Below are positions 5,672-61,654 of a DNA stretch of 64,000 nt, piece after piece; position 1 is the first letter of the stretch, and the number at the start of each line of letters is the position of its first letter. The stretch spans positions 5,385,223-5,449,222 of the forward strand of contig NC_057752.1 in NCBI RefSeq assembly GCF_004010195.1, read 5' to 3'. The position numbers and the translations under genes are program-made. The notes beneath the pieces are model-generated. The model did no database searches and was not told the origin of the DNA. It worked only from the letters and a program-made list of their open reading frames with translations. The DNA comes from Chiloscyllium plagiosum (lineage: Eukaryota).

Positions 5672-5843
5672 GAAGCGTTCTTTGGAAAATCACTGCTGGA
5701 CAGCAGTCGGAAGGTTTGCCTCAGTTCAGAGGGTTTCTCTGACAGTGAAAGCACTGAGTTTCCACAAGCCACGACTCAAGCGGACTCGGCACCTCAGCAG
5801 AAGGATTTAATTGAAGAAAAGCATGATGGAGCCCATGGAAAGG
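5672..5843 (+). CDS. KMT2D: KMT2D exon (~human exon 23), 172 nt, phase 0->1
   Basis: tgacag|GAAGCG ... AAGG|gtgagg; encodes EAFFGKSLLDSSRK..., the KMT2C/D EAFFGKxLLD motif. Confidence 0.92.
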
Positions 5844-7509: not shown

Positions 7510-7608
7510 CTCCTGATGCAAAGACAATCCAAGCCATCCCAGAACATAATGGAGATCCAATCCCTGATGAACCACCTAAAACTGAAGAAACACAACCAGA
7601 TGGAATGG
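7510..7608 (+). CDS. KMT2D: KMT2D exon (~exon 24), 99 nt, phase 1->1
   Basis: tggcag|CTCCTG ... ATGG|gtgagt; open frame (A)PDAKTIQAIPEHNGDPIPDEPPKTEETQPDGM. Support is mostly splice sites and phase because the peptide is poorly conserved. Confidence 0.8.
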
Positions 7609-8162
7609 GTGAGTAGGGAGCAGGAGGAAATGTGCCTGTTGTAAATTCTATTATTTTTGGAAATGCACTGTTACAACACCAAACTTCACCCTTTGGTTTT
7701 TGTAGAACCCTGAAATAAATCCAATAACTGTTTGTAATCTAACAGCAGTTCAAGATTCATAGCTTGCGCTTAGTGCACTTATTCTATTAATTTAAATTCC
7801 AAATTCAAAGGTAACTACTTTTGATTACAAAGTCCAATGTGCTGTTAAATTATTAGTGTTCTGTAGAATAGTGGGGCAAGGTATCCAGCCAGAGTATGGT
7901 GTGTGCGCTGGTATGGGAAAAGCGACGGTACTGCAACCATGTTTCTAAATATTTAATTAGTAATGAACGTTTATTACTAAAGGTCTAGGTTCAAATGTTT
8001 GTCATGGTTGGTCAATGAAAGAATTTAAACAAGGCAGCTGTCTTGTGTTTAGGCAGCGCATGGAGCACAGAAAAATCTGAAAGGGAGTAAACTTTGAATG
8101 TAATTAAAAATAGTATACAGAATACCTATTTCCTTTTGTTCGCACTGCTACTGTCAAAACTA

Positions 8163-11100
8163 GGTCAGAAGTCACATGACACCAAGTTATAGTCCAATGG
8201 ATTTATTTGAAATCCCAAGCTTTCAGAGTACTGCTCCTTTGTCAGATGAAGTGAAGAGAAGCACACGGACACAGAATTTATAGGCAGAGAGCGAAAGATC
8301 ATATAAATGTGTGAGTGGAGTGTCAACAGGCTGAATAAAAAGTCTCTGCGGGTGATCAAAAGTGTCAGATGTGAGAGTAAAGTGTCAGCAGCTGAATAGT
8401 AAGTGAAGGGATGACCTATGATCCGATTAATTGAAGCAGAGATAATTACAAAAAATAAGACGGTGCTGGAGACAAATCAAATGGCTGGAATAAGATGATA
8501 GGTATAAGAGTCACGTGGCGAAGGTTGAACCAAAGTAACAGGTAATCCAAAACTACAAACTAATTAAGGTAGAGAGATCATGATAATTTATCAATGTGGT
8601 ATTGTCAAAATAGGACAGTAAGAAAGATTTTACAATAGAGAGTACAGTCTGGTTACCCCTAGTGCGACATGGACCCAAGATCACAGTTGAGGCCATCTTC
8701 ATGGGTACGGAACTTGGCTATCAGTTTTGCTCGGCAATTCTGCATTGTTGTGTGTCTCTAAGGCTGCCTTCGAGGGTGCTTACCCGAAGATAGGAGGCCG
8801 AATACCCTTGACTGCTGAGGTGTTCCCCGACTGGGAGGGAGCATTCTTGACAGGCGATTGTTGTGCGGCGCCCATTTATCCATTGTAGTAACGCCTGCAT
8901 GGTCTTGTCAATAAACCGTGCCTCAGGGCATCCTGGCCTGTAGTGACAGCATTGGCCGAGTCACATGAACATCTGCACTGTACGTATGGGTGGTGTTCCC
9001 ATAGGTGATGAGTGTCAATGTCCATGATCTGCATGTCTTGCAAAGATTGCCGTGGCAGAATTGTGGTCGATGCTGTCCTGAAGGCTGGGTAGTTTGCTGG
9101 AAACGATGGTCTGTTTAAGGTTTGATGGTTGTTTGAAGGCGAAAGGTGGAGGCGTAGAGATGATCATGGCGAGATGTTCGTTGTCATTCTTGACGTATTG
9201 AAGGCTGCGAAGGACATGGTGTAGTGTTTCTGCTCCAGGTGAAGGGTACTGTATTGATCGTGTTCTGTGTCTTGTCTTCTGAGGCGGTTGTTGTGGCTTT
9301 TTGCTGTGGCACATGAGAACTGGTGATTAATCAGTTGAGCGTCATCGTACCCTGTTCTTATGAGCGGGATGCGATCTTCAATTCATCGATTGCCAGTTCC
9401 GATGTGCCACAGTGAAGAACTTCAACAACCTTCTCAGAAGACAGACACAGAACATGACCAATCGAGTACCCTCTGTCCAGTACTTCCCCAGAGCAGAGAA
9501 ACTCTGCCGCGTTCTTTGCGAAGATCATCTCTACACCTCCACTTCTCGCCTTCAAACAACTGCCAAACCTTAAATAGACGATCATTAGCAGCAAACTGCC
9601 AAGCCTTCAGGACAGCATCAACCACAACACCACACAATCCTGCCACAGCAACCTCTGCAAAAAATACAGATCAGCGACATGGATACACTCATTACACGTG
9701 GGAACGCCACCCACGTTTACGTGGCAGATACTCCTGTGACTCGGCCAATGGTGCCAACCTCATACGCGTTCGGCAAGGATGCCCTGAGGCATGGTTTATT
9801 GGCAAGACCATGCAGGCACTACAACGGATGAATGGACACCGCACAACAATCGCCTGACAGGAATGTTCCCTCCCGGTCAAGGGCATTCGGCCTCTGATCT
9901 TCGGGTAAGTGTCCTCCAAGGCAGCCTTTGAGATACTCCACAACGCAGAATCACCAAGCAGAAACTGATCGCCAAGTTCTGTACCCATGAAGATGGCCTC
10001 AACTGTGATCTTGGGTTCATGTTGCACTCCATGTAACCCCACCATACTGTACTGTATTGTAAAATCTTCCTTATTGTCCTGTTTTGACGATACCACGTTG
10101 ATAAATTGTTATGATCTCTCAACTTTAATTATTTTGTACAGTTTTGGGTTACTTGTTACTTTGATTTGACCTTCAGCATGCGACTCTTAGACCTATCATC
10201 ATATTTGAGCCATTTGATTTGTCTCCAACACCATCTTTCTTTTAATTTTTTGTAATTATCTCTGCTTCAATTAATCGGATCATAAGTCATCCCTTCACTT
10301 GCTATTCAGCTGTTGACACTTGATCACCCGCAGAGACTTATTATTCAACCTGTCGACACTCCACTCACACTATTTGTATGATCTTTCAAACTGTCTGCCG
10401 ATTTCTGTGTCTGTGCTTCTCTTCACTTCACCACCTGATAAGAGGAGCAGCACTCTCCTTTCAGAATGGCAGGCGGTGACCAGTGGGGTACCGCAGGGAT
10501 CAGTGCTGGGACCGCAGCTTTTTACAATATATATTAATGATATAGAAAATGGTGTTAATAGTAACATTAGCAAATTTGCTGATGATACAAAGCTGGGTGG
10601 CAGGGTGAAATGTGAGGAGGATGTTAGGAGATTACAGGGTGACCTGGACAGGTTAGGTAAGTGGACAGATGCATGGCTGATGCAGTTTAATGTGGATAAA
10701 TGTATGGTTATCCACTTTGGTGGCAAGAACAGGAAGGCAGATTACTACCTAAATGGAGTCAAATTAGGTGAAGGGGCAGTACAAAGTGATCTGGGTGTTC
10801 TTGTACACCAGTCAATGAAGGCAAGCTTGCAGGTACAGCAGGTAGTGAAGGAAACTAATAGCATGCTGGCCTTCATAACAAGAGGGATTGCGTATAGAAG
10901 CAAAGAGGTTCTTCTGCAGCTGTACAGGGCCCTGGTGAGACCGCACCTGAATATTGTGTGCAGTTCTGGTCTCCAAATTTGAGGAAAGACATTCTGGCTA
11001 CTGAGGGAGTGCAGCGTAGGTTGACTAGGTCAATTCCTGGAATGGCGGGACTATCTTATGTTGAAAGATTGGAGCGACTGGGCTTGTATACCCTTGAGTT

Positions 11101-11597
11101 TAGAAGACTGAGAGAGGATCTGATTGAGACATATAAGATTATTAAAGGTTTGGACACTCTGGAGGCAGGACACATATTTCCACTGATGGGTGAGTGCCGA
11201 ACCAGAGGACACAACTTAAAAATAAGGGGTAGGCCATTTAGGACAGAGATGACGAGAAACTTCTTCACCCAGAGAGTGGTGGCTGTGTGGAATGCTCTGC
11301 CCCAGAAGGCAGTGGAGGCCAAGTCTCTGGATTCGTTTAAGAAAGAGTTGGATAGAGCTCTCAAGGATAGTAGAATCAAGGGTTATGGAGATAAGGCAGG
11401 AACAGGATACTGATTGAGGATGATCAGCCATGATCATAACGAATGGTGCAGGCTCGAAGGGCAGAATGGCCTACTCCTGCACCTATTGTCTATTGTCACT
11501 CTGAAAGCTGATTTCAAATAAGCCTGTTGGTCTATAACCTGGTGTCCTGTGACTTCTGACTTTGTCCACCCCAGTCCAACACCAGCACCTCCACATC
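8163..11597. mobile_element. Head-to-head (palindromic) Penelope-like insertion; left arm on -, right arm on +, right arm split by a CR1
   Basis: 8164-9357 is the diverged reverse complement of 9362-10456 plus 11503-11560; GIY-YIG-like YSCDSAN..LIR...CPEAWFIGKTMQ..RMNGHR; 13-bp TSD ACTGTC(A/G)AAACTA at 8150-8162 and 11598-11610. Confidence 0.85.
10457..11496 (+). mobile_element. 5'-truncated CR1-clade LINE (RT C-terminal half and 3' tail)
   Basis: [46 protein letters not shown] over two ORFs with one frameshift; CTATTGT x2 tail; CACTCT TSD at 10451-10456 and 11497-11502. Confidence 0.93.
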
Positions 11598-14500: not shown

Positions 14501-16557
14501 CAGTGGAAAGAAGCTTCTCCCTGCTGCCTATTGTCTTGTTAATTGTGTGCTTGCCCGTCTCCAATCCACATATGCTGATTTCTGTCCTATCTCTTTCTGC
14601 TTCTGGTGTGCTTATGCTGATTTGTCTGCCCTTTTAATAAAATGCTTGATCGGTCTCTAATATTTTGCCTTGCGCAGATTCCTAAAGTGTGTTGGCTTTG
14701 TGGTACTTAGTACCCATGTCATTGTCAGAATTAGTGACTGACTAGATAAACAGCAAAATAGAATCCAGGAATGTTGAGGCCTTTTTGTTTTAATACCTTG
14801 TAATAACCAGATCTGGAAAAGCTTTCCAAGTTTTTCTTTGTAACCCAACCCTCTCTAAGGTTGGATGAGCCAATCGATTTAAAGCAATAAATGAAGCAGG
14901 TTCAGAGGAATTAATGAAATATAATGCCATCTAGGCCATGCCTATCCTGCAAAATACTGTATTCTTGTTTTATAAAATACAATTCTTTTAAAACCAGGAA
15001 AGCAAGCCAGTCACATCTTTCTGGGAGTTCCTGCCCTGGAACAATAATTTAGAAGCAACTGTAACTGTTCTATAATTGACTTCCAAGAATTTACCTATTT
15101 GCCCGTTTTGCCCAATTCCTCACAGTATTTGAGGGCAATCCTGTGGGTAAGCTATATTAACAACAGCTCCACCTTAGCAGTTAACCATCACAACTGTGCT
15201 CTAGATTAGGAGGTGATCTCCTATGGCACTGCTTTAATTTGTTTAAGCCACTGGAATACTATATCATATGTATGCCTCTGCTAATTCACATTTTCTGAGA
15301 AATGCTGAATTAGTGTATTTAGAAATACAGAAATTGTGATTGAGGAAAAAATTAGAGTTACCTAGTTTTTTTCCCCCAAATTTCATAAAATGTAGCATGA
15401 AACTTAAAAGATATGAAACTACAGATTCATGCAGTAATCTAACTAGAGGTGACTGTTGGAGAATAATAGATATTTAATTTGATTGTTGCAAGCCTGCTTC
15501 CTCTTTGTGTTGGCGCATCCATATTTGGGACATTGCAAGAGATAATGGGTCATGTTTTTTTCCTCCCTTTTTAATGTTATTTAACTTAGGTTTCACCACA
15601 AACTTGTGCACTTTTCCAACTATCAAAGTCCCTGTTCCTTCCATAATGGCACTGCCCCAATGGTGAGCTGAGTTGAAAATTTAACGCACCAATTGAATTT
15701 GAGTGAAAGCAAAATACTGCAGATGCTGGAAATCCAAAACAATCAGAATGCTGGAGAAACTCGGCAGGCCTGGCACCATCTGTCGAGCGAGAAAGAGCTA
15801 ATGTTTAAAGTCCAAAATGACACCGCTTAAGAATTGAATTTGAGTAATTGGTTGGAATATGTACCACCTCAGTAATAGTTTGAAGTCAGTAGGTTGAAAC
15901 AGTAATATTATACAGTGGAAAAAGGTAATATTAATTGCATCTCCCCATTCTCATTTTCTGTTCATGCTTGAACTTCGGTTTGTTTAGAAACAGTATTCTA
16001 GTCGATATTTACTTCAATCTGTCGTATATCTCTTTCACTTCTTTACGCACAAATGTTTTACATTTGTTTTAACCTTCTTTCCTTGTGTGAATTTTTCCAG
16101 AATTGTTTCAAGTTACCAAGCTACCTTGCTGTCTTTTTGATTGTAAAAGCTAGGCTACCTTTCTTTGTTTGTGAAACGCAGGGCTTTTGTGACTGCGTTC
16201 TTAACTGATTATTTGGTTAGGAGCTATTTACATAGTCCATTTAATGTGTCCTTTACAGATATATCTGTGGTTTTGGTCCACACTATTTAGTCAGTCCACT
16301 GCACTGACCACCCAACTAATTTTTAGAATCCAGGCTTTCTGGCTAACCTGATATCTGTAGAGACCCTGAAATATTACAGGTCACTTTGAATTTTGACACA
16401 ATTCTTATTTGCTTTGAGCCATGCACAGTGATTGGGCTGTGTTATTATGCTGTAGAGATGGTTGTGGACATTTTAGGTTGGAAAGGCTTAAATGGCTTTT
16501 GCTTGCCACTGTTCAATTTTTTCCCTTTTTGTTTTTATTGTACTTTTGGGTTTTTAG

Positions 16558-16605
16558 GTTTCGATCTCAGTCCTTTCCACGCAGACAGCTCCCTCTCTCC
16601 CTTTG
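16558..16605 (+). CDS. KMT2D: Candidate alternative KMT2D cassette exon, 48 nt, phase 1->1
   Basis: Long U-rich tract, ttttag|GTTTCG ... TTTG|gtaagc; open frame (G)FDLSPFHADSSLSPF; symmetric phase fits the neighbouring exons. Confidence 0.65.
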
Positions 16606-19600
16606 GTAAGCAGTCAGACCCTCTCGCCACTCTTTGCGTGTTCACATGTTAACATCAGTAGTTTGTACCTGGGTGCTTGTATGTCTGCTTGCGTTTTCAT
16701 AGAGGATCTTCACATGATATCACCAGTCTATTCAGTGGGTTGCTGGACAAGTACTAAAATTTGTTTTAGCAATTGTGAACGTAAAAGCCAATCAAGATTT
16801 TTCTGCTTTCCTGCCTTTCAATTCTTTTGAAACTTTATCTGTAAAATGCATGTGAAAATCAGTTTGCATTCACAAACTATCTCAGAAGTAACAATTGTGA
16901 TCTTGGATTGTCCTGCATCATATTTTATACCTAATCAAATATTTGTATTGTTGTAAAGGTATGATAACTTGAATAAAATATGTTGAGGCGCGGGAATTTT
17001 TCCAATGACTACTGGTAATCTAAGCATGTGTAAGTTATGTCACTGATTCTTGGTTCAAATTCCACCTATGGTAATAAACCAAGATTTGAAAAAGATGAAT
17101 TTTGTTTGCACCGCCACGTTTATTTGACAAATGATTTGACAATTTGTTCAAAGATTTCCAGTCTGTTTTAAATGGAATTTATAGGAGCTCTCGATATCCA
17201 AATTGATAAGTCAACCATGCAGTACATACCTTAGCCTTAACAGCTGAAAGGGTCCCAGATTTGATTTCTGGCCTGCATATAGACTAAGTTGACCCTCGCT
17301 TTGTTACAAGATGATGTCACATTATTCTCACTCCTAATCACCATCCATTGTCCCCAGCTCCCCACCCCCAGTGTCAAGAATGCGCTTGCAGATTTTGAAT
17401 GAGGTCAGCATTGGGTTTGGCTATAATCTACAATGTCAAATACCCTGCAGAACTTCAGTGTGGCAAATGGCTACGTGGAATGAATTACTGTAGGGTTGTC
17501 AGCACCCAGGTAGCTATCTCAGCAGCTGTAATTTTCCATTAACAGAGGAGGGTGAAGTACAGAATTAAGTATGTTAATGTGTTTGGAGACTTGATGCAGT
17601 CACAGTTCAGCCAAGCCGTGTACAAGGAACTGAATTGGTTCCTGTTAATTGAAATAGTTGACATTCAGCTAATGATCTGTTTATTTTGTTATCTCCTGCA
17701 GTATTGAGCCATGAGATGTCATCACGATTGTAAAAGTAAATCTGGAACTCTACTAATTTTGATTACTGCAGACCTTTAATAGAATTTGTGTTGACTGTTG
17801 CCTGATACATGTATTCCACACTATGGTGGGACAGTGCATATTTTCTATTTAAATCTTCGTCGTGGTTCAGTGCAAGTGGAATTTAGCTTTACAAATTATT
17901 GCCCATCAGAGGAACCTGTAAAATCTTGAATAGTTCATACAAAGGTTTCCCAGCCTATACAAAACAACTGGGTGGGATGAACTGTTGAACACTGACAGTT
18001 AAGTATATGCACAAAGAATTGGACATCATGATGTACTTATAATTCTAATCCTGAGGAGAGTTTGGAACACAATTTTTAAAAAAAATTAAAATCATGAGAT
18101 ATTATTTGTTTTGCAGTCTAGCAGGTTTAGAACAGCCCTATGTCTTGGGTCTGCTAAATTCAGTTGGAGATAACTCCTGCGTAAGGTATATCGCAGAATG
18201 CAACCCCAGCCAGCCAATGTGGAATCGTGTAGCTATAATTCTCTGCGCTCCAAGCTTGAAGAGGATGTATGAAGCTCAAGCGTTATGTAGGGAAGGAAGT
18301 GGAGGAAAGCCAAAGTTAAGCTGATTATTTGCTTGCAGTTTATGCTTATCTTTGCTGCTTGCCTTGAGAAAAAAATTCCTTTCACTTATGTGGGCAGGTT
18401 GTGTCCAAATCTACTTGTATAGTGCCTGTATCTTTCATCACAATAAATTTGATTTTACCTATATCGCGACTAATGATGCACCCCTCCATGTACTGTTTTC
18501 CTGTTGTAACCACAAGGCAGCTTTGCCCACAAAATTGACTCTGATTTATTACTTCATCTGAAAGTTGACAAGATTTGTGCTGAGCTTATTCAGAGATATT
18601 GAATTCCTGCTTCAGAAAGTATATTAAGATTTGCACACCAAACACAAGTTCCAGAGGCAAGCAGGGCTGTGTGAAACTGCTGGTAGGCTGCAGACATTTT
18701 AGATTAAGTCAGAATGTTGACATGCCACATTGCCAGTGTGGTCAAGCTCAACTTTGTGACATGCATCATTCATTAGCTTTTTGTAGATGCATTTTCACTG
18801 ATCCGATTTGAGTACTAGCTCTTCATGCTCTCTGGTGGTCTCTCTTGTTATATATGTTACACCAAATACATTCTCCCTCCTTTATAATTTCTCCCTGTCA
18901 CTGGCATGTGCAAGATAATCCAATTCAATTGTTAAAGTTAAATTTAAATCTAAGATTTTTGAGAGATATGGGCCCATTGCAGACATATGGAGTTAGGCCA
19001 CAGATCAACCATGATCTGATTTGAATGGCAGAGCAGGTTTGAGGGGCTGAATAGCCTACTCCTGTTCCTATGTTCTTTTCCTTGATAGTGTTAGAATTTG
19101 GTAAAATGTTCTCTTTCAGTGCCCAAATATTCCTTAAATTTAATTTGTTCTTTCCAAGAGAATTGAAAATGTTTAGCTTTGATTTATCACCATTTAGAAA
19201 ATGGACAGATCATTATTGAAATAAGACTCCTCCTTGAAATCTACATTTCCAATGATTTTGCTTTGGTGTTGAAAGCTCACTAAAATTAAGACCATAATTT
19301 TAAATAGAATCCTCAACTAATTTTAGTGTTTTTGTTTTCTCCTGAAGTCGGTGTTTGAAATGTTTTCCAATATTTAATCCAAGTGACCTTCATTAATTTG
19401 GGAGCATGGTTTTGTTGGCATTAGCAGTAAATTCTACTGATTGTCAGTGCCTCCAGACACTGACATCAATTATAACACTATCAGACCAGGAATAATGTTT
19501 AGGACCTCTGATCTGCAAAGTGGTTACCCACTGCCTTTACCAACTAAGCCATTGACAGAAGCTTTAGCTCACTCTCTTTAGATTGACCTTTTAGAATCAC

Positions 19601-20175
19601 AAATGACAATAACTTATGAAGCTTGAGTTTGTTTCTTGTGGGCTGACAATAAAATTCAGAAGCAACTAAGCCATCAAATATCAGTGTATCTAACCAGAAG
19701 CAGTGCTTATTGCAATGTGATTTGGGCATGGTCTATGTTTTGTTCAACAGTAAATAAAAGATGCCTCACTATTGTGTTGTGCTCCACTTTGCATTTGAGT
19801 AGGAGTAAAGCTCCAATCTTTGGTTGAATTTGATCAGTGGGTTGAGGATGGAAATCTGCCTATACTCGTGTATCTTGGTATTACTTGGTTGTGAATGTTC
19901 TCACTACCAGTCATGTTGGACTGCTTTGAGTTTGTATTTGTTATTTTATTAATTTCCTGCCAATAGATATTTCTTTAAAATTGTTTTCTGTCTTTTCTTT
20001 GAGAATGGAAAGGAAGTTGGTCATGTAGACCTAAAGTTTGAGTAGGCAATCTGCAAAATTTTTTCCATTTCCTTGCTGTTTTGTGTTGTTGAATTCAGCT
20101 CCATTTTTCACAACTTCGCAACTGCTGGAAAAAAAAATTTGTTCAGTAACTTATCACGGTGCTCCTTTCTTTAAG

Positions 20176-20313
20176 CTGGGATTGACATCTCATCCGTTAC
20201 GGATGAGCTTTCAGCCAATCATCCAAATGAGAGCTCAAAGCGAAATCAGCCTTTCAATGATGTTCCAGTGGAGGGTGCCCTCAGCTCAGATCTTGACAAG
20301 ATTGTAACAGAAG
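20176..20313 (+). CDS. KMT2D: KMT2D exon (~exon 25), 138 nt, phase 1->1
   Basis: ctttaag|CTGGGA ... GAAG|gtaggt; ends VEGALSSDLDKIVTE (human EGMLSSDLDRISTE, recalled). Confidence 0.9.
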
Positions 20314-20989
20314 GTAGGTCGAAAAGTGTTGTGTGAAAAGATCATGGAGGGTAAATAGTGATAGTTGTTTTTGGGGCTTGGTAGAGCTGCGATTCAAAAA
20401 TGGTGTAGAATTTTAGGGTAGTGTCTCAACTGCAGTTTGCTTTTTGGTGTATGTCTGGATAACGTTGGGATATAGCTGTGTGTTGTGGAGTTCACAAAGA
20501 GGAGTTTTTTTTGGGTACTCAGTGATGTAAAATCTTCCCTAAGTCATCTAAAGTTGCACTTCAAAGCTGGTGATTTCCTTTTCTCCCTAGTCATGTTGCT
20601 GCAAAGTGGTTTTCTCTGGGTCAGTCCCTCGACATTGTTCCCTTATCTCCAAGACTGACTTGACCATGTTTGACTATCTTATCATTGGATATGGCTGGGC
20701 GATATAAACACGATCAGCTAAAGCCACTCATTAGTCCAGGATCATACCAAAGAGTGAACAACCCACGTGCACATATGCAGCTTATTTGCTTTATTTCCAA
20801 CTGTCTTCTGAAGCTACTTTATTCCTTCAAGTGCAAGAAGCTCATGGATTCTAATCTCAGTATTGTGTATCCATTCAGCCAGGAACCTACATATTTAATT
20901 TGTCTGTCTGTCTTTTCCTGTGTCCTCTCTGCACAAGTGGGCACACAGACCCATGCATGCACAGCCTGAGATCCACCACCTGCACCTCA

Positions 20990-21990
20990 ATTGTTTCTAC
21001 TAAGTTACTACTCACTCAACTTCTTTTGCTGGTTCCCAAGCTGACAGATGGTTTCCTTTCCTCTAGTTACTGTGTACACCCTCTCCTTCAAAGCTATTGC
21101 TGTCAAATACAAACCTGCTTCTAAACCCTCTCTCAGAAAACTACTGTTTCAGCTCTAATCTACCTCTTTCCCCTTGAAGTTTTGAAAGTGTTATTACTTC
21201 CCAATCTGTCTTTTGCACATGCTTGAATCTTAACAAATTGTTTGTCTCATAAAAGCACTAAAAGGCTCTAACCAAAGTGTAAGTAACATCCTGTCACTGT
21301 GATGTATTCTCATTCCATATCCCCCTCATCCTTGTGTGTTAAATATTGGGAAGTCTGAAGTTTTTTGTCTTGTCCTCCTACCGCAAATTCCATCCCCTTT
21401 TCCATTAACTGTTTTTGCCTCAACGTAACTGTTTGTTTTTAGCCTTGGCTCCAGAATCAACCCCAGTTTAAGTACCAACCCCACACACACTCTCCCATCA
21501 CAAAAAGACTGCCTACTTCCATCTGCATGACATCACCTCTCTCTCTCCTTCTGTCTCTGTCTCAGTCCACCTGCTACTGAAGCCCTCATCCATATCTTTG
21601 TACTGTATATTCAATTATTCTGATTCTGTCCTACCATTCTCAGTACTTTGTAAACTTTAGTTCATGCGCGCCTCTGCCCAAATTTTATTCTGTGCTGTTT
21701 GTTTGTTAACTTCCAGTGGTTCCTTGTTCAACAATGCCTCTGTTCTCTTAACCTTGTGTTTAAGCCTATTTATGGCCTCCCTCCTCTCTGGCTTTGTAAA
21801 CATGGCTGTGCCTTCAGCCACCTAGATCCTTTGCTTTGCAATTTCTTCCTTAAACTCCTCTGTCTTCCTACTTCCCTTACTCCATTTTTAAGGCCTTGCT
21901 TAAAGCCACCTCGTTGTCTTTGCTTGTACTTCCTTCTCCGTGTGGTGTGCATGTTTGATGGCACCTCTGTAAAGGGCTTTGGATGCTTTT
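20990..21990 (+). mobile_element. Highly decayed L2-like LINE fragment
   Basis: Remnant frames KTAYFHL.DI and LSPPATEALIHIFV near 21505-21600, typical of the L2 ORF2 C-terminus; boundaries approximate. Confidence 0.5.
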
Positions 21991-22545
21991 CTTTTGGTGA
22001 AAGTCATATTTCTATTGTTACTTTACTTGGCATTGTAATTTTATTTTGGCAAGTCATCTCTCTCAAGGCTGCTAACACTGTTTGCGATATTCTGAAGTGG
22101 TCTTCCCCATCATTTGAGAGGGTTTCACAGCTTTGTGTTTCCAATCAACTGAATGTAGATCGTGTATGCCCATGTGATTGTGTTCTTGAAAACTTTGCGC
22201 GTCAAGTTGTTGCACTTTATCACTTTCTCATGAAAATTAAATGTAAGTGTTGTAGTTGGTTTCTGTAGGACTTTTCTCATCAGAAAAAAAGCATGAAACT
22301 GTTGAAACTTTTTTTGTTGAAGTACTTCACGTGACCTAATTTCTATATTAGTAAATGCATCAATTTTTAAAATGAAGTAAGCTTAAAAATGTAAGTGAAA
22401 TGTGGTCATTTTCAATTTCCAAAACCACCCACTTGCCACATATCCTGATCTCTCACTCTGCTGCCAGCCCTTCCCCTACCTACCATCTGGTTGAGCCCCT
22501 CCCATCTTGCTGCTGACTCTCCTGGCTCCTGTTCCCTGACTGTTC

Positions 22546-22567
22546 GTGTGTGTGTGTGTGTGTGTGT
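22546..22567. repeat. (GT)11 microsatellite
   Basis: Directly visible. Confidence 0.95.
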
Positions 22568-23568
22568 CCTGAACCCTTAGTGTGAGCCTTTTTAACCAGT
22601 CAACTCTAGCCCAATGTCTTCAGCGTTCTCAATCTGTTGAGTTGATTGTCCTGTAGGATATGTTACCAGGAGAATTCTGAGCAAAACTAGACCAAGCTCA
22701 TCACAAACCCAGTAAAAAGAGCATGCCTCCTTCATATCAAAGCAGCTGCTCCTGCTCATCTCTAGAGCACTCATTCACACTAAAGGTTTACAAGATCTCG
22801 GGAGCAGGCGGTTCAATGGGATAGCCAGTGTGGCAGAAGTCAGAAGGTAGGCAACTAGAGAAGGAGCCCACAAGTCAGATGGTCAGCATGAGGGAAAGAA
22901 ATGTCAGAAGCAGTGGAAACCACTCTTAAATGGAGGCAATCAGGTGTCATGGCCCTGCACTCAGACTGGTAAGAAACAACACTACAAAAACTTTGAGTCG
23001 TCCCTAAATGAGAATACAGGACCCATTAATTTAGTGTTAAAGAAGAACAGTGGAAAACGAGGGCTTCCTGTATAGGAACTTCAAGGGAATAACTGGTTTA
23101 TGTCCACCGACATGTGGTTAAACACAATTAAAATACAGTTAACATAAGATTTGTTAGGAAGAGCCTCTGGGAGCATGCAATATGGATAACCTGACTGCTA
23201 GTTGGGCTCGGAGGTCAAATTACCAGGAGCTATTACGCAATCCAATGTTCCTCTCCCTGGAATGTAGAAGATTTAAGTAGTGATTTGGTCCAAGATTTCA
23301 AAAACTTCAGGTTGGGATTGTTGGACTAGAGAACGCATAGTCTGAGTGAGAACCAGACTTTTCAAGAATTTATTTAGGAAGCACCTCTACACATGCGTAT
23401 CTCTTTTACAAATGGCGATTGATGCTGGACCAGTTGTATTAAGGGGCATGGGGAAAAGGTGGGTTTATGGAGTTCGTTCTCAGACCAGTCATGTTCATTG
23501 ATTGATGGAACTGGCTTGAGGATTTTGTTTAGATTACTTGATTGATGGAACTGGCTTGAGGATTTTGT

Positions 23569-23871
23569 TTAGATTACTTAGTGTGGAAACAGGCCCTTCA
23601 GCCCAACAAGTCCACACCGACCCTCCGAAGAGCAACCCACCCAGACCCATTCCCCTACATTTACCCCTTCACCTAACACTATGGGCAATTTAGCATGGCC
23701 AATTCACCTAACCTGCACATTTTTGGACTGTGGGAGGAAACCTGAGCACCCAGGGGAAACCCACGCAGACACTGGGAGAATGTGCAAACTCCACGCAGAG
23801 AGTTGCCTGAGGCGGGAATTGAACCCGGGTCTTGGGTGGCACAGTGGTTAGCACTGCTGCCTCACAGCGCC
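23569..23871 (-). mobile_element. tRNA-derived V-SINE/HE1-like element with an inverted 5' head, inserted in a CR1 3' tail
   Basis: The minus strand reads GACCCGGGTTCAATTCCC (B box) ... TGGAGTTTGCACATTCTCCC; the A-box head GGTGGCACAGTGGTTAGCACTGCTGCCTCACAGCGCCA is on + at about 23834-23871. Confidence 0.85.
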
Positions 23872-23975
23872 AAAGTGGCTTACCTCATTCCTCTGTGTCT
23901 CAATAAACTTGTGGTGTGCCGATGTTGAAAATTAGTTTTATTGTTTTAGCAATAACAAGTTTGTTCTTCTTTTAG

Positions 23976-24164
23976 AACTAGCACAAATGGAGAGTAAAGA
24001 TGTACAACAGCTCTTCACTGATGTTTTGGGATCACAGGGAAATCCTCCACTTTCAGAATCAACATTAGGTGGTATTCGAACTGCCTCCGAAAGCCATCTA
24101 CTCACTTCTCATGGCTTGGGAGAGCTTATTAGACCTTCAGTATGCCAGCGGGGTCTCCTTCCTG
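23976..24164 (+). CDS. KMT2D: KMT2D exon (~exon 26), 189 nt, phase 1->1
   Basis: ttttag|AACTAG ... CCTG|gtaaga; encodes (E)LAQMESKDVQQLFTDVLGS. Confidence 0.93.
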
Positions 24165-31488: not shown

Positions 31489-32769
31489 CGGGGGGGAAAG
31501 AAACTATGACTCCTAATCTGATGGGACCTCTTCAGAATTTATGGGGTTTAATAAAATTCAAACTTGTGTGTCTACTATCTGAGCAGCAAGTTTTTTTTTA
31601 AACAACCTAAGATGTGAGTCTTAGAAATGTGGTGATAGAAAGAGTTCCTGCAAGCTCTTGGTAAATTAATGGAAAGAATAAACTTGTTGCTGAACTTTTT
31701 TTCAGTCTTCTGTCTGTCATGTAAGTGTAAAAATACACTGCTATTTTGGAGTCTCCAAACCAAGCTATCAAGAAATCTCTCAGGCTGAATTTGGTTGCCC
31801 GATCCAAAGTGTACCTTCCTCCATAATGAGAGAAACATTATGTTGACCGAAACCAATTGAGCAATGAAATGAGATTCATTTTAATAACTACTTTTTTTGT
31901 TTTGCAGGATGCAATGTTACATATGTCTGCTTCTACCTACTACCCCAATGTCCCAGCAGTCTGTCTCTATAAATACTCTAAATATTTAATAAGCCCTTTA
32001 ACTGTGTCTTAATATAATTTAATTGCTGATTTTCAAGAGCTGAGGCAGCAGTACCACCACCAAGTGTGTGCAGGCCTACTGCTGGAAATTAACCATTCAA
32101 AATGGTGCATACTGATCACTTCCTGCTGTTCATTGTTTTACCTAACAGCACTGGCTTTAAAGATTGTTTTGAGCAGACTGGAAAAATGCAGATAACCAGT
32201 CTACCACTGTAGACTCCAAAAATTGAAATGCATGCTTGGTTAGTCAACAGTACTACCTTGGATTAGAATCTATTGCCAAGCATTGGATTGATTTTCCTTC
32301 TCCAATATGTTATCTTGGAACCATGTTGGCTCCAAACAGACTGTTCACCTCAACCCCTTCCTCTAGGAGGATAGTATCTACTCAGTCAGTTCACTGTAGA
32401 TGTTTTGTCTTTGCAGGGTGTATTGCGCCACTTGGCGATCCTCCTGATTAGCATAATGAGAAATGTAACTGACCCAAGAACGTACATTGCTAGAAACGTA
32501 TGATAACCCCATCTAACGATTGTTTCACCAATTGGCAATGTAGAGCTACAGCAATGACTGTTTACTAGTTAATGGCAAGTACTGAATCCTGGATGAAATG
32601 TTTTCTCATCATCTAGTTTTTCAGTAACTGTCATTTCTAAGTCGTTACAAGTTACATATTTGACTTATTCTTTTTCAGCAAGATGTAAGATGCATTTAGG
32701 GCAATTTGTAAAATACTAAACAATGAAAATGAGTTATGTTTGTGTTAGATATTTTTGATTGATTTACAG

Positions 32770-33020
32770 GGAAAGGAGTATACCTTTCAGCCCAGACAGT
32801 GGGGAGCAACAGAGCCCGTGGACAACCCCTGCCACCCCAGCTACCCCGACCACTCCAACGACCCCGACCACTCCTACAGAGGGAGAAGGAGATGGGCTGT
32901 CCTACAACCAGCGAAGTATACTTAGATGGGAAAAAGATGAGGCTTTGGGGGAATTATCAACCATATCACCTGTTCTCTACGCGAATATCAACTTCCCGAA
33001 CCTGAAACATGATTACCCAG
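32770..33020 (+). CDS. KMT2D: KMT2D exon (~exon 28), 251 nt, phase 2->1; TP repeats and start of the HMG-box
   Basis: ttacag|GGAAAG ... CCAG|gtatga; SPWTTPATPATPTTPTTPTTPTEGEGDGLSYNQRS...NFPNLKHDYP. Confidence 0.96.
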
Positions 33021-33214
33021 GTATGATGTTAGACATAAATTCCAATTTAAGGGCTACTTCATGAATAAAAGCATGCTACATAGTATTGGCCATCTTATAG
33101 ATTGTGAATAAGTTGTTTTTAATCCTGCGATAGTTGGTGGTAATCTCAAGTGGCTATGTAGAAGTTTCCTTTATTTGTTTTTTTGTTTCTCCACCCTCCC
33201 CGCCCCCAAACCAG

Positions 33215-33288
33215 ACTGGGCAAGTCGTTGTAAGCAGATCACTAAGATTTGGAGAAAGGTACCGGCAACTGACAAAGCACCATTTCTG
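33215..33288 (+). CDS. KMT2D: KMT2D exon (~exon 29), 74 nt, phase 1->0; HMG-box
   Basis: aaccag|ACTGGG ... TCTG|gtaagt; (D)WASRCKQITKIWRKVPATDKAPFL. Confidence 0.96.
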
Positions 33289-35419
33289 GTAAGTGCTTAC
33301 TTCCCTTTGATAAATTGTTGTCAGGTGAGATGTCAAAGTAAAGATTCATGGAATTTAAACTGAACTCAATCAGTAGGGAACTAGTGTTAAATTTTGCATG
33401 CATTTTACTCTCCACTGTAATTGAGCTAGGCAGTGATGGGATATTTTACAGTTAACTAAGTAGCTTGGTATTTTTGACCAAAACTATTAGAGTACATAGA
33501 ATGGGTGTGGGACCTTGTGGTTTTTACATACATCCTAAAATTTGTTTTGATCAGAAACAAATCCACAGTGATACACGCTTAATTCCATTTATAGTGCATA
33601 ATGCAAGAACGTTATCTTTCACCCATTAGGAGTTTAGCCAGTCTAAAGCCACAAGTGCTGTAAATTTGCCACCAATAATGAATGTGCTGGATCCAGATGA
33701 ATGCTTGTATTTTGTGATGCTTCTACTGTAGAGACCGGTTTCTAATAAGTTACTACTAAAGATTTGTGAAATATTACATTCTGAAGTATGAGTTATCTTG
33801 TGTTTAAAGTCATAGAAACAAACTAATTTGCTCTTAAGGTCAGCACAAATGCATATGAACCTCTTGAAACAATATTTGCCAAAACAAAAAGTTGATTTTG
33901 AGAAGAATGTGACTCTAGAATCGTTTAATACAAATAACTTAAGATCTAGCAATTATAAAGTCATGTGAATTTGACCATGGGGCAAGCAAATTGAAATTTT
34001 CAGACTTTTTAAAAAAACAAACTTTAAAAAGTGACTTATCCATATGATGGCAAATGACTTGTTTGGAGACTTAGAAATTACACCACAGATGAAGGCAGTT
34101 CCATCCAGCTAGTCTGTTTTTAACGTTTGCACTCGATGCAAGCAAATTGTTTTACAACAACAATTCACATTTATGTAGCACCTTTTTACTGTCACAGGCC
34201 GATTGCAAGTTTTAAAAAAGAATTCTCTCCTATCCTCACTGCCTGTCTATTGTCAGATTGTATCTCAATTTCTTCCCCTTTTTTGAGCGTGTTTTAACCA
34301 TTCACTCTGTTGTGGGCAATAACTTTGCAAGGAACATGACATGCCACCAAAAGTTGGGAAAAAACAGATATAGGATTTATTTCACATGGACTTGGATGCT
34401 TTGAAACACAAGCACAGAAAGAAACCTGTACAGAGTATAAAATCAGAAAGCATAAATGAGATTGTTCAATTAATAATAACTAAAATACCAAAAAAAGAGA
34501 AATCGGGGCTTAACAGTGTCCTTGTTTTTACAGATGGAACCCAAAAATCCAAAATTGGTATTAGTCCGGAATTTGTTTGTGGGGTTGGTTGATTAGCTGG
34601 CTAGCTGGTCAGCGTTTGAGAAGTTGTCGGCGGTCTCTTCTTTTCTTTTTAAAAATCTCTTGCAAAGTCCTCCTGAGCATTTGCCAGAATGTAACTTCTA
34701 CTTAACTACTTTGATGAAAGAAACTTTACCAATACAGTGCAAATTCAGGTTGTTGGCTGCTTTCTACAGGCGAGATGCTTTTCTCTTGTAGCCAGAGTTA
34801 GCAATGTTGATATTCTGTACATGGTGTACAGAACAATGCTGACCCTTAAACTGTCTTCCATTTCAAAGTCTTAAACTAAAGAAGGCAGTTGGGCTTAATA
34901 CAGTGGGACTGATGTGACCGAGACTCTTGCAGGAGGAACAGCACTTACCCTTGAGACAAATGCTTACATTGCAGATAACCCCAGGAGTTGATCACGGACA
35001 ACCGACTAAGTGGAAAGCCATTAATACATCTTGTAAGATGGATGTGATTTGTGATTCAAGAGATGCTCTCGGAGGCAATTGTTATAATATGCTACAGAAA
35101 TACAATAGTGACCATTCCAGTCTCATTAGGAGGTAGCTGCATCTTGATTGTTTGGATGACATTGACTTCGGGGAGAGTTCCGGAAGGTTATTGCCAGGTT
35201 CTGTCACGTGTAGCAGCCATGTTTGTTTGTTAGTTGTTGACGGTTTTGAAAACAGGCATTCAGTAAACATAGATATGTATTTAAAAATTTGGTTTTTACT
35301 CCATTTGTGGCAGTAGTTAAATATCCCAAGGCATTTCACAGAAATTTAATCAGACAGAGAAGGCTGACATTAAACAAATAAACCAAAGAACTGTAGGTGC
35401 TGGAAAGAAACAAAAACAA

Positions 35420-38259: not shown

Positions 38260-39675
38260 CCATCTGGAGTAGTTCAAGATGATTGGAGGATGGCAAATGT
38301 TATTCCCTTGTTCAAGAAAGGGATTAAGGATAATGCTGGGAATTACAGACCAATCATGCTTACGTCTGTGGTCGGCAAAGTATTGGAGAGACAATATTTA
38401 TGATTACTTGGAAAACCATTGTTTCATTAGAGATTGTCAGCATGGCCTTGAGAGGCATAGGTCATGCCTTATTGAATTCTTTGAGAATGACAAAGTGCGT
38501 TGTTGAAGGTAGAGCAGTGGACGTGGTATACATGGATTTTAGCAAGGTGTTTGATAAGGTTCCACATGGTTGGTTCATTCAGAAAGTAAGGCGGCATGGG
38601 ATACAGGGAAATCTGGCTGTCTGTTTGCAGAATTGGGTGGCCCATAGAAGGCAGAGGATGGTGGTAGATGGAAAGTATTCTGCCTGGAGTTCAGTGACCT
38701 GTGGTGTTTCGCAGGGATCGTTTTGGGACCTCTGCTCTTTGTGATTTGATTTATAAATGACTTGGATGAGTAAGTGGAAGGGTGGATTTGTATGTTTGCC
38801 CATGACACAAAAGTTGGTGGAGTTGTCGATAACATGCAACGGGACATTGACAGGATGCAGAGCTGGGCTGAGAAGTGGCAGATGGAGTTTAACCTGTAAA
38901 AGTGTGAAGTGATTCAGTTTGGAAGGTCGAAATTGAATGCAGAATACAGGGTTAAAGGCAAGATTCTTGGCACTGTGAAGGAACAGAGGGATCTTGAGGT
39001 CCATCTCCATAGATCCCTCAAAGTTGCCACCCAAGTTGACAGGGTTGTTAAGAAGGCGTATGGTGTGTTGGCTTCCATTAGCAGGGGGATTGAGTTTAAA
39101 ACCCACAAGGTTATGCTGCAGCTCCATAGAGCCCTGGTTAGACCACACTTGGAATATTGTGTTCAGTTCTGGTCGCCTCAATATAGGAAAAATGTGGAAG
39201 TTTTAGAGGGGGTGCAGAGGAGATGTACCAGGATGCTGCTGGACTGGAGGGCACATCTTGTGAAGTAAGGTTGAGGGAGCTTGGGCTTTTCTCATTGGAG
39301 TGAAGAAGGATGAGAGGTGACTTGATGGAGTTATCCAAGATGTTGAGAGGCATAAATAGTGGGTAGCCAGAGACATTTTCCCAGGGCGGAAATGTCTGTC
39401 ATGAGGGGACACAATTTTAAGGTGATTGGAAGAAGGTTTAGGAGAGATGTCAGAGGTAGGTTCTTTATACAGAGTGGTGGGTGCATGGAATGCACTGCCA
39501 ACGGTGGTAGCAGAGTCGGACACATAAGGGACATTTAAGCGACTCTTGGATAGGCATATGTAGGGTATGTAGGTTAGTCTGATCTTAGAGTAGGCTAAAA
39601 GGCTGGCACAACATTGAGGGCCGAAGGACCTGTACTGTGCTGTACTGTTTTATGTTCGATGTTCTATATTCTATA
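38260..39675 (+). mobile_element. CR1 LINE, decayed RT domain and tail
   Basis: VDVVYMDFSKVFDKVPHG, GVSQGS, LHRALVRPHLEYCVQFWSP; (TATGTTC)n-like tail. Confidence 0.92.
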
Positions 39676-45578: not shown

Positions 45579-46787
45579 CAAATTTGATTGACCTTTGAAT
45601 AGGTGACCAAGAAGATAGGTGAAGGCAGAGTAATAGACGTTATCTACAACGACTTTAGGAAGACCTTCAACAAGGTTCCGCACGGTAGACTAGTTAGTAA
45701 GGTTAGATCACATGGGAATCGAGGGAGAGCTAGCCATTTAGATACAAAATTGACTTGATGGTAGGAGAGATGGAGAGGATAGTAGTAGAGGGTTATTTTT
45801 CAGATTGGAGGCCTGTGACTAGCAGTGTGCCGCAAGAAACAGTATTGGATCCATTGTTGTTTGTCATTTATATAATTGATTTTGATGAGAATATTAGAGG
45901 CATGATTAATAAGTTTGCAGATGACATCAAAATTAGTATAGTGGATAGTGAAGAAAGTTATCTAACAGTACAACGGGTCCTTGATCAACTCGGCCAATGG
46001 GCTGAGGAATGGCAGCTGGATTTTAATTCAGATAAATGTGAGGTGTTGCATCTTGATAAGAAACCAGGGCAGGACTTGCAGAGTTAATGGGTTCTTGGGG
46101 AGTGTTATCGAACAGAGACACCTAGGGGTGCAGTTATATAGCTCTTTGAAAGTGGTGTCACAAGTAGACAGTGTGACAAAGAAGACATTTGACACGCTCA
46201 CCTTCATCGGTTAGGACATTGTGTATTGGAGTTGGGACAGATACAGCTGTACAAGACATTGATAAGGCCACATTTGGAGTACTGCATACAGTTCTCGTCG
46301 CCCTGCTATAGGAAGGATGTTATCAAACTGGAAAGCATGCAAAAAGAATTTACGAGGATATTACACTGACTAAAAGGTTTGAGTTATAAAGGAGAGACTG
46401 GATAAGCTGGGACCTTTTTCCCTGGAGCATAAGAGGCTGAGGTGTGACCTTTTATAGAGGTATATCAAATCATGAGGAGTGTAGATAAGGTGAGTAGCCA
46501 GGGTTTTTTCCTCAGGGTAGGGTAGTCCAAAAGTAGAGGGCATAAGTTTTAGGTGAGAGGAGTAAGATTGAAAAGGGACTTGAGGGGGATGTTTTTCTCA
46601 CAGCAATGAGCTGCCAGAGGAAGTGAAAAAGGCTGGTACAATTACAACATTTAAAAGACATTTGGACAGGTGCATGGATGGAAAAGGTTGAGAGGGATAT
46701 GGGCCAAATGAGATTAGTTTAGTTTAGGAAACCTGGTCAGCATGGATGAGTTGGGCTGTTTCGTTGCTGTATGACTCTACAGACTCT
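45579..46787 (+). mobile_element. CR1 LINE, decayed RT domain and tail
   Basis: YFSDWRPVTSSVPQETVLDPLLFVIYI.DFD...NKFADDIKI, WQLDFNSDKCEVLH; TATGACTCT tail. Confidence 0.92.
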
Positions 46788-53525: not shown

Positions 53526-55330
53526 CACAGAAACCAACCCTTCGGTCCAACTTGGCCATGCAACCAGATATCCTAAATTAATCTTGTCTCATTTGCCAGC
53601 ATTTGGCCCATATCCCTCTAAACCCTTCCTATTCATGTACCCATCCAGATGCCTTTTAAATGTTGTAATTGTAACAGCCTCCACCACTTCCTCTGGCAAC
53701 TTATTCATGATGCACATCATCCTCTGTGTGAAAATGTTGCCCCTCAGGTCCTTTTAAATCTTTGTGTCAACTTACACCAATGTCCTCTAAGTTTGGACTC
53801 TCCTATCCTGGGAAAAATACCTTGTCTATTTTCCCTATCCATGCCTGTCATGATTTTATAAATCTCTAATAAGGTCACCCCCTTCAGCTTATGACACTCC
53901 AGGGAAAACAGCCCTAGCCTATTCAACCTCTCCCTGTAGCTCAAGCCCTCCACCCCTGTCAACATCCTTGTAAATCTTTTCTGAACCCTTTCAAATTTCA
54001 CAACATCCTTCAGGAGGGAGACCAGATTCGCACAATATACTACAAACGTGGCCTAACCAATGTCCTGTTCAGCCACAAGTGAAGTTCCAACTCCTAATCT
54101 CAATACCCTGACTAATAAAGGGAAGTGTACCAAATATTGCCTTCACTACTCTATCTACCTGTGACACCACTTTCAAGGAACTATGAACCTGTACCCCAAG
54201 GTCTCTTTGTTCAGCAACACTCCCTAGGGCCTTACCATTAAGTGTATACTTTCTGCCCTGATTTACCTTTCCAAAATGCATCTCCCATTTGTCTAAATTA
54301 AACTCCACCTGCCACTCCATGGCCCAATGGCCCATCTGATGAAGGTCCCATTGTTCTCTGACGTAACTTTCTTCGCTGTCCACTACACCTCCAATTTTGG
54401 TGTCATCTCCAAGTTTACTAGCCATACTTCTATATTGACATCCAAATCGTGTACATAAATTAGAAAAAGCAGTGGACCCAGCACTGATCCTTGTGGCACA
54501 CCACTGGTCACAGGCTTCCAGTCATCCTCTGTCTCTTACCTTCAAGCCAATTTTGTATCCAAATGGCTAGGTCTCCCTGATTTCCATGTGATCTAACCTT
54601 GCTAACCATGTGGAACCTTGTTGTTCGCCTTGCTGAAGCCTATGTAGGCAACATCCACTGCTCTAATTTCTTCAGTCTTTGTCACTTTAAAAAAACTCAA
54701 GTTAGTGAGACACTATTTTGCGCGCACACAGCCATACTGATTACCCTAATCAGGCCTTTCCTTTCCAAATGCATGTGAATCATGTTTCTCAGAATCTCCT
54801 CCAACAACTTGTCCACCAATGATGTCAGATTCACCAGTCTGTAGTTCCCTGACTTTTCTTTTATAATAGCACACGCCAGCCAATCCCCAGTCTTCCGGCA
54901 CCTCACCTGCGGATGGAGATGGTCCAAATATCTCAGCAAAGAGCCCAGCAATTACTTCCCTAGTTTCTCAGAGTTCTCTGGTACATCTGATCAGATCCTG
55001 GGGATTTATCCACCTTTGAGTTTTAAGACATCCAGCACCACTTCTAATATGGAGGATTTTCAAGACATCACTATGCATTTCTCCAAGTTCTCTAGCTTTT
55101 ATATCCTTCTCCACAGTAAATATTGATGTGAAATACTTATTTAGTATCTCACCCATCTGCAGTTCCATACACAGGCTGCCCTTTTGATCTTCAAGGAGCC
55201 CTATTCTCTCCCTAGTCACTCTTTTGTCCTTAATATATTTGTGGAATCACTTTGGATTTTTCTTAACCCTATTTGCCAAAGCTATCTCATGTGCCCTTTT
55301 TTCCCTCCTGATTTCCCTTGAGTATATTAC
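53526..55330 (-). mobile_element. CR1 LINE, decayed, antisense
   Basis: [57 protein letters not shown]...LSYRERLNRLGLFSLE. Confidence 0.92.
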
Positions 55331-59751: not shown

Positions 59752-61654
59752 GTTTTAGGCTTCCCGTATGAAGAGTATATAGAAGCAATAAGAGAGAGTG
59801 CAGTATAAATTTACTGGCTTGATTTTAAGTTTCTTACATGAAAAGTAGCACTCGTGATATTGTCAGTTTAATTGGTGAACTGCAAGGCTAATTTTGGATC
59901 AGTTGTAATATGATTTTACATTAAGGCAGGATGGTATTTCTTCTGCAATCGCTTTCCACTTTTGTCTAATAGTTTTATTTGTTGCTATGAGTCAGAGCGA
60001 AATATCGTCTCCAATCATACATGTACTTGGGGTTGCAAGCAGATCTCATGCAATTTAGACTATTTTGACAGACACTACAGTCCATTAAGGCAATGTCTGG
60101 TGGTTGAGATGAACGATCCTACAAAGAGTAAGGAATCCTCTGATACCTTAGCAGCATTCCTCCCTTAATCAGCACCACTTAAAGCAGAATAACAATTTAT
60201 TTGTGTTGATTGGTGCAAAATAGTTCTGTCATTTCTCATAGACATTCTTAGTTTATTTTACTTGAAAATGTTTGGGAGGTTTGAGAGACTTGACAAAGCA
60301 CAGTGTAACTACAAGTTATTTTGCCAGAAAGAACACCATGTGGCTAGTTAAATGCCATTTTCTCCGGTTTATAGTTGCTTTCTGTTTATTTCTCAATTTT
60401 CAAATTATGCACATGCAAGGCTATTATTTGTAGCAAAAACAAGTTACTGGGGGCACTCAGCTGGTCTGGCAGCATCTGTGGGAAGAAAGCAGATAACATT
60501 TAAGGTCCAGTGATATTCAATGTTCAACTCCCTGGCGAGGCAGCACCTTTTGATAGACTGATGCTATACCACAGTTGGTATTCTGGCCCTTTTGCAGGGG
60601 CTACCCTTATCCTAAATCGCTTGCACTGTGGTAACCTTCTGGAGAGTGGATGAGTGCAATGAGGAAGATGGATTGTTTGTCTGATAGGGCCGCCTTTATT
60701 TTTTACGTGACTTCCAAGCCCTCAGGCAAAATTATATTTGGTGATGGGAGGGAAGTTAGTTTTTTAAAAAATTTGGCTTCATATTTAAATTAATTGAAGT
60801 TGTGCAAGCCCTAGTGTTTTATGGAATTAAGAGGTAGCCTGCAGCATCACCTATCTACAATATTATAACAGCATTTTCACATGATTGTTCAGAATGTCGT
60901 TTCCTCAGAACTTATCGAGGTAGGCTATGCTCCTATGAGCTGTGAAGGATGAGCATTTTTTAATGGTGATCTAACCAGGGAGGTAACATGTCTTGATCTT
61001 GACCACTATTTTCCCCTGTCTGTCTCTGTGCTATGGCTGGTTTCCTTTTTAAAAGACTCATTTTGCATGTAAACCTTAATAGCAGTATTTAATCTCCATT
61101 TTAGGGCAATTATATGTATTTTCATTTTTGACCAAAGTCCTTAACTTGGTAGGAAATTGACTGGTCACTACCATGTCATATGGATGTCTTGAAGCATCTT
61201 TAAACTTGATGTATTATACAGTTTGAAACAATTTTGACTACTAAAATTGGTTGATTTTTGTCAGAATTAATATCCAGAGTGAGAATTCTGTTGTTGAGCC
61301 TTTTTTTGAAAGGGTCTATTATCTTGAAAGGCTTTTCAACCATAAAAAACAACCAAATATACCAATTTCAAATCTGCTTTTCACCTGAGTAAGTTGAAAC
61401 TCCAGGCCAGAGTTCAACAATATTATACTTTCATGGTACTTGATTCTCCCCTCCACCCCCAGCCCTCTCCTCTTGTGGTAGGTATTCCTTTTGAGATCTT
61501 GCAAATTGTGCAAAACACCAAGTTTCACAACACAACATCTACAATTTTGTACCTGTTTTTAAGGATTGTTTCTCATTTGAAATGCTCAGTTTTGTAATCA
61601 GAGTTCTAAAATGCAGCATTTTGAACAGTTTTACCAGATTCTTTTTCTTTGTAG

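Follow-up and report, generated by a model that had tools for sequence, protein, structure and literature searches.

We describe a candidate 48-nt cassette exon (exon C, positions 16558-16605) in the KMT2D gene of the shark Chiloscyllium plagiosum, within a stretch of 64,000 nt (RefSeq assembly GCF_004010195.1, contig NC_057752.1, positions 5,385,223 to 5,449,222 of the forward strand), hereafter the window. Its 16-codon peptide, GFDLSPFHADSSLSPF, matches an optional segment of the paralog KMT2C, and from the sequences compared the homology of the cassette with that KMT2C exon is not in doubt. The reading that we favor, and hold to be probable, is that the cassette is the KMT2D copy of an ancestral 16-codon optional exon, likely spliced at a low level or in a tissue-restricted way, that would add a motif to a linker of the protein.

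Match to the optional segment of KMT2C

The KMT2C segment has 16 residues, is followed immediately by AG[IL]D[IV]G or D[IV]G, and is found between the same anchors as the cassette. Our search for KMT2C and KMT2D proteins yielded the best 120 of 168 matches (4467-5000 aa); among the matches listed are 76 KMT2C records, 41 with the segment, 33 without it, and 2 missing an anchor. Both forms are found within single species: Felis catus (P0067/P0120 versus P0092-P0094), Odocoileus deer (P0095 versus P0117), and the newt Pleurodeles waltl, where the segment is present in 10/12 models and missing from 2/12 (e.g. XP_069067214.1 versus XP_069067217.1). Carriers include catshark, bonefish, eel, newt, turtle, and mammals including apes, while other teleost KMT2C copies have shortened versions and a chimaera model skips the segment. 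The catshark version, GLDLCTFQVENSPSPF (Scyliorhinus torazame GCB60659.1, from the profile search), is identical to that of turtle. The phase and intron position of the KMT2C exon are inferred from isoform pairs of protein models; the residue that follows the upstream KMT2C segment varies with the form between G, A, and D, all of which have codons starting with G, as fits a phase-1 junction.

The window peptide is identical to KMT2C at 7-9 of 16 positions in 10 full-length versions (9/16 in newt; 8/16 in catshark, turtle, bonefish, cat, and chimpanzee, e.g. XP_063671141.1), and at 3-7 in 4 shortened teleost versions. Across 14 KMT2C rows, F7 is present in 14/14 and S12 and F16 in 13/14; the conserved residues of the segment are G1, D3, L4, F7, S12, S14, P15, and F16, and at 13/16 positions the window residue occurs in at least one row. 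Scored against 6 distinct KMT2C segments, the peptide ranks 1 of 127,906 six-frame 16-mers (36.7; runner-up 24.0), and 0/100,000 shuffles reach its score. Among 24 open 48-nt AG..GT candidates in the interval between exons B and D, the cassette is the best and the next scores 8.3. Identity between KMT2D and KMT2C is 50-56% for the cassette, as compared to 12-21% for exon B, 30-33% for exon D, 33-40% for exon A, and 30% for exon E; this better conservation than that of the flanking exons indicates long selection on the peptide. A preliminary description of this DNA had put forward a KMT2C peptide that proves close, though not identical, to the database segments. It had also counted two S-P sites, the second of which (S14-P15) is common to KMT2C, while the first (S5-P6) has no KMT2C counterpart.

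The two exons are thus alike in anchors, length, compatible phase, and the AG[IL]D[IV] that follows; they differ in that the cassette belongs to KMT2D, in half of their residues, and in the acceptor of the next exon. In KMT2C that exon has a 9-nt alternative acceptor, and exon D of the window has no AG at that place. The short acceptor is used exclusively in 15/15 primate KMT2C records and in the rodent and lemur records; carnivores and ungulates have the long form or both. Two further KMT2C elements that come after exon D, an optional 15-residue extension and a short LYKIP-containing segment, have no counterpart in the window intron 20314-23975 (best scores 16 and 18).

Host gene

The host gene of the cassette is KMT2D by exon-by-exon protein comparison, in agreement with the preliminary description. 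For this typing, 11 window segments from tblastn were scored against 5 KMT2C and 5 KMT2D proteins. In 5/11 segments (the HMG-region exons HMG1 and HMG2, the giant exons big1 and big2, and the exon at 61654), every KMT2D scores above every KMT2C; the two HMG-region exons, for example, give 117-126 and 45-49 bits with the 5 KMT2D proteins versus 76-86 and 35-36 bits with the 5 KMT2C proteins. Exon E and segment 44017 have KMT2D as top match with score ranges that overlap those of KMT2C. The paralog typing of exon A is undecided, and exon B has no true match in either paralog; its positional counterpart is a 35-residue KMT2C segment with just 4-7 identities. For exons C and D, KMT2C gives the higher scores because bony-vertebrate KMT2D lacks them. 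Exon D, which is found in RNA-type contigs, aligns to KMT2C without gaps over 46 residues, and its last 16 residues are 81% identical to reptile KMT2D; amniote KMT2D records keep just this end of the exon, and teleost records lack that too.

Splice signals and regulation

Re-reading the sequence bore out the coordinates and anatomy proposed earlier, a 48-nt exon of symmetric phase 1. The cassette is stop-free, with acceptor ttttag/GT and donor TTG/gtaagc, and in frame with exons B and D; these are both phase 1-1, and the frame is therefore kept with the cassette in or out. In structure, it fits the alternative micro-exons of Li et al. 2015 (internal, at most 51 nt, AG/GT, symmetric phase). The AG-free tract previously put at about 70 nt measures 70 nt, with TGC motifs at 16500 and 16504 as had been noted and a branch-point-like CTTAAAT at 16487 (a consensus match alone). 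The earlier term "strong sites" is fair for the acceptor, whose T fraction of 0.71 in -30 to -3 is the highest of 5 exons compared, and too generous for the donor, which is moderate: 47 GT sites in the B-to-D interval match U1 as well or better. AG-to-AG gaps of at least 70 nt number 50/4372 in the window, 11 longer ones lie within the B-to-D interval, and exon B also has an AG-free zone, of 72 nt. Taken alone, the DNA signals of the cassette exceed chance only weakly. Folding of RNA 16480-16700 gave no unusual structure (z 0.48), and a repeat search with 16201-17000 found no copy elsewhere in the window.

The intron upstream of the cassette contains a long inverted repeat (8159-9338 and 9378-10370, with 11510-11565), whose arms of about 1 kb align in 13 pieces that are 76-96% complementary, with a centre of 39 nt. 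In the pre-mRNA, the repeat could pair into double-stranded RNA and so affect editing or splicing.

A special case of our favored reading would make the cassette a neural or muscle switch exon of RBFOX or SRRM4 type, which we regard as rather unlikely. The TGCATG that the preliminary description had taken as an RBFOX element is indeed present, 242 nt downstream of the cassette, and the contigs of skipped type described below come from samples whose tissue is not known. RBFOX control is not supported: the motif is common (33 copies in the window; 12% of 250-nt windows contain one, and so a single motif has a 12% chance), and a 928-nt contig from the same species (X1 record 1, depth 6.7) has as its sole difference a G>T at 16848 that breaks it, with allele and error not separated. 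SRRM4-type neural microexons have UGC close to the acceptor; the cassette departs from that type both in its length and in its TGC motifs, which lie 54-58 nt upstream of the acceptor (the nearest at 54 nt) and are not raised in frequency (5 seen, 3.3 expected). Parts of PMC4317164 describe enrichment of TGCATG in the 3' flanks of alternative micro-exons and a long T-rich upstream tract, like that of the cassette, as one of their traits. At 48 nt, the cassette is nevertheless outside the 3-27 nt neural microexon class as given in part of PMC8437376. In a survey of chromatin regulators and their neuron-specific splicing, KMT2 is named 0 times in the portion of the text covered, Figure 1 gene names excepted, and the covered portion of the supplement has no match (PMC11864812).

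Transcript evidence and weighing of present-day use

The RNA test covered positions 16000-20400, an interval that begins downstream of exon B, with three contig sets (X1-X3) and one raw single-cell run (X10) that gave 0 reads and is no test. The contig sets are of unknown tissue and drop rare forms. Exon D is contained in one X3 contig of 12,172 nt and one X2 contig of 784 nt; neither has a listed piece or depth on the cassette, which fits the skipped form. These contigs likely represent that form, although a 48-nt piece may fall below the listing size. X2 and X3 carry the labels of other, related species, with 0-1 differences in exon D. In the same-species set X1, the cassette occurs just in the unspliced 928-nt contig, with no change within the exon. 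The X1 contigs cover the intron from 16477 on and none covers 16000-16476; this edge may reflect either a filter gap or a step in coverage of the pre-mRNA close to the branch region of the cassette.

Several points weigh against the favored reading. No joint 16605->20176 is among the joints listed in X1-X3. In KMT2D of bony vertebrates, 0/46 records with both anchors have a segment-like stretch or the G-hydrophobic-D-hydrophobic motif in the linker (best combined score 29, versus 127 for the window itself), and two more teleost records with a variant anchor show nothing similar by eye. These absences concern protein models, mostly of teleosts, with some of reptiles, two rodents, and others; full-length human KMT2D, coelacanth, lungfish, gar, and bichir are not among them. 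No other chondrichthyan KMT2D was found among 6 hits, the best 120 of 168 matches, 59 profile hits, and 22 candidates, in searches that, except for the 59-hit profile search, were confined to proteins of up to 5000 aa; the true profile hits are KMT2C-type by their flanks, 3 are unrelated repeats, and none of the 22 candidates reaches E<=1. Nor was a lamprey, hagfish, or amphioxus counterpart identified among the 59 hits (15 looked up by name), which leaves no outgroup for the ancestral state. The KMT2C forms are automatic gene models. Finally, the disorder call for the linker comes from a crude hydropathy/charge index and is mixed along the linker, with FoldIndex-type values negative for exons A, B, and D and slightly positive for C and E.

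A rival reading is a relic, that is, an exon homologous to that of KMT2C and no longer usefully spliced, shark KMT2D having been slower at losing it than that of bony vertebrates. The missing inclusion joint, the disrupted TGCATG in the same-species contig, and the 46/46 bony-vertebrate absences, from which it follows that KMT2D can do without the segment, all point that way, as does a drift of 7-8 residues from a KMT2C segment that catshark and turtle share identically. Yet the cassette keeps an open frame, its exact length, AG/GT, and the T-rich tract; most of its changes relative to KMT2C are conservative (F/L, H/Q, A/V, D/E); and the neighboring exons, which are used, are less well conserved. 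An unused intron segment is not expected to stay this intact over hundreds of millions of years. We consider a relic unlikely, and splicing of the cassette into present-day shark mRNA probable.

Evolutionary history

The KMT2C counterpart has the same position and length and is likewise optional; thus, an origin before the KMT2C/KMT2D split, as the preliminary description had suggested, is the most economical reading, and we hold it to be very likely. Since cartilaginous fishes have both paralogs, the simplest history comprises ancestral presence, retention in KMT2C and in this KMT2D, and at least one loss in bony-vertebrate KMT2D; of that loss we are fairly confident. KMT2C and KMT2D arose by duplication in the genome doublings of early vertebrates. 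Drosophila trr stands in a one-to-two relation to the pair, according to part of PMC6954584. A segment that is the same in KMT2C of catshark and turtle and recognizable in shark KMT2D would date an alternative splicing event to before the duplication.

The exon might instead have been transferred from KMT2C to KMT2D by gene conversion in cartilaginous fishes after the duplication, perhaps together with the start of exon D, in keeping with the higher scores of exons C and D on KMT2C than on bony-vertebrate KMT2D. Such a conversion is very improbable because neither exon is closer to KMT2C of cartilaginous fishes: the cassette has 8/16 identities to catshark versus 8/16 to turtle and 9/16 to newt, and exon D is 30% identical to catshark and chimaera versus 33-35% to turtle and newt. 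Moreover, exon D is of KMT2D type in its 3' part. A chance pseudo-exon, for which one could cite the 716 open phase-1 AG..GT segments of 15-150 nt in the 12.6-kb intronic interval and the individually common DNA signals of the cassette, is refuted in practice by a peptide that matches the optional segment of the paralog at its exact position and length.

Proposed function

Inclusion of the cassette would insert a conserved acidic and aromatic short motif ending in S-P-F into the linker that runs from the last PHD finger to the HMG box. Exon D opens with a G-hydrophobic-D-hydrophobic element, and the cassette would supply another one 16 residues before it, along with two further conserved Phe (F7 and F16) and a conserved S-P. 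The mostly unstructured, acidic linker would thereby gain hydrophobic contact motifs, as in regions resembling activation domains, and inclusion would likely tune a partner interaction. Section 10 of PMC4317164 describes an enrichment of alternative micro-exons in disordered regions and a proposal that they change protein interactions, which is the reason for the short-motif reading; the chances that the cassette peptide acts as a short linear interaction motif or phospho-motif seem to us about even. In a catshark KMT2C (P0127), where the segment occupies 1110-1125, the stretch from the PHD fingers to a weak HMG-box match about 200 residues after the segment (below the cut-off) has no Pfam family, and a PDB profile search gave 0 hits. 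SUMO-interacting, LC3-interacting, and ERK docking readings of the peptide were dropped, as their consensus is too degenerate.

A broader proposal, which we put forward tentatively, is that the exon encodes a splicing-switchable partner-binding motif of the ancestral methyltransferase, kept nearly unchanged in KMT2C from catshark to apes, present as a diverged working copy in cartilaginous-fish KMT2D, and lost together with the adjoining motif in bony-vertebrate KMT2D. If so, there would be a regulated interface that separates human KMT2C from KMT2D and that is missing in skipped isoforms. KMT2C and KMT2D, enhancer H3K4 methyltransferases that are redundant in part, underlie neurodevelopmental syndromes (part of PMC6954584). 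Differences between the two within their long linkers are poorly mapped, and the segment singles out a small testable motif in KMT2C.

Relation to known micro-exons

By analogy, the cassette may be classed with the paralog-shared alternative micro-exons of APBB and tensin genes. As described in part of PMC4317164, those of APBB1-3 (6 nt) and the tensins are likewise short, frame-preserving, and at paralogous positions; they survived an early vertebrate duplication and are alternatively spliced, as is probable for the cassette. In contrast to them, the KMT2D cassette lies in a linker rather than in a folded binding domain, and one paralog, KMT2D, seems to have retained the exon solely in one cartilaginous fish. 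The neuron-specific microexons of LSD1 (12 nt) and PHF21A (part of PMC11864812) resemble it as short optional inserts that keep the frame of a chromatin enzyme related to H3K4, whereas the KMT2D cassette has 48 nt, lies outside catalytic or reader domains, and shows no sign of neuron-specific inclusion. A supplement row of PMC4317164, a source covered in part, gives an MLL3 micro-exon of 23 nt that is different from the counterpart of the cassette. The covered portion of the PMC8187152 supplement had 0 matches, and no paper on this exon was found in the open-licence literature, a scope exclusive of large inclusion tables that possibly list the KMT2C exon. The novelty of the cassette is modest: events of this kind are known, public gene models already include the KMT2C exon, and models of shark KMT2D may include the cassette as well.

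Features of the window

Table 1. Exons, splice signals, and motif discussed in the text, in window coordinates
Feature	Position	Strand	Description
Exon A (EAFFGK...)	5672..5843	+	Upstream anchor, conserved in both KMT2C and KMT2D
Exon B	7510..7608	+	99 nt, phase 1-1, 33 codons, directly upstream exon
3' splice region	16486..16557	+	70-nt AG-free T-rich tract (16486-16555), then AG
Exon C (cassette)	16558..16605	+	48 nt, phase 1-1, 16 codons; GFDLSPFHADSSLSPF reading from 16557
5' splice site gtaagc	16606..16611	+	6/9 U1 consensus match counting the exon's last three bases
TGCATG	16847..16852	+	Possible RBFOX site, perhaps not fixed in the species
Exon D	20176..20313	+	138 nt, phase 1-1, 46 codons, starts AGIDISSVTD
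Exon E (ELAQMESKDVQQLF...)	23976..24164	+	Downstream anchor, KMT2D type
Exons covering most of the HMG-box-like region and the stretch that leads into it	32768..33297	+	Used for KMT2D typing

Elsewhere in the window, a short repeat fragment at 18940-19086, related to 11448-11494, has very high depth in all three contig sets, and 23498-23579 is a perfect 40-nt tandem duplication in 2 copies. Broken reverse-transcriptase-like frames occur at 10317-11413, 38334-39268, 45734-46087, and 53744-54521; they resemble pieces of CR1-type LINEs.

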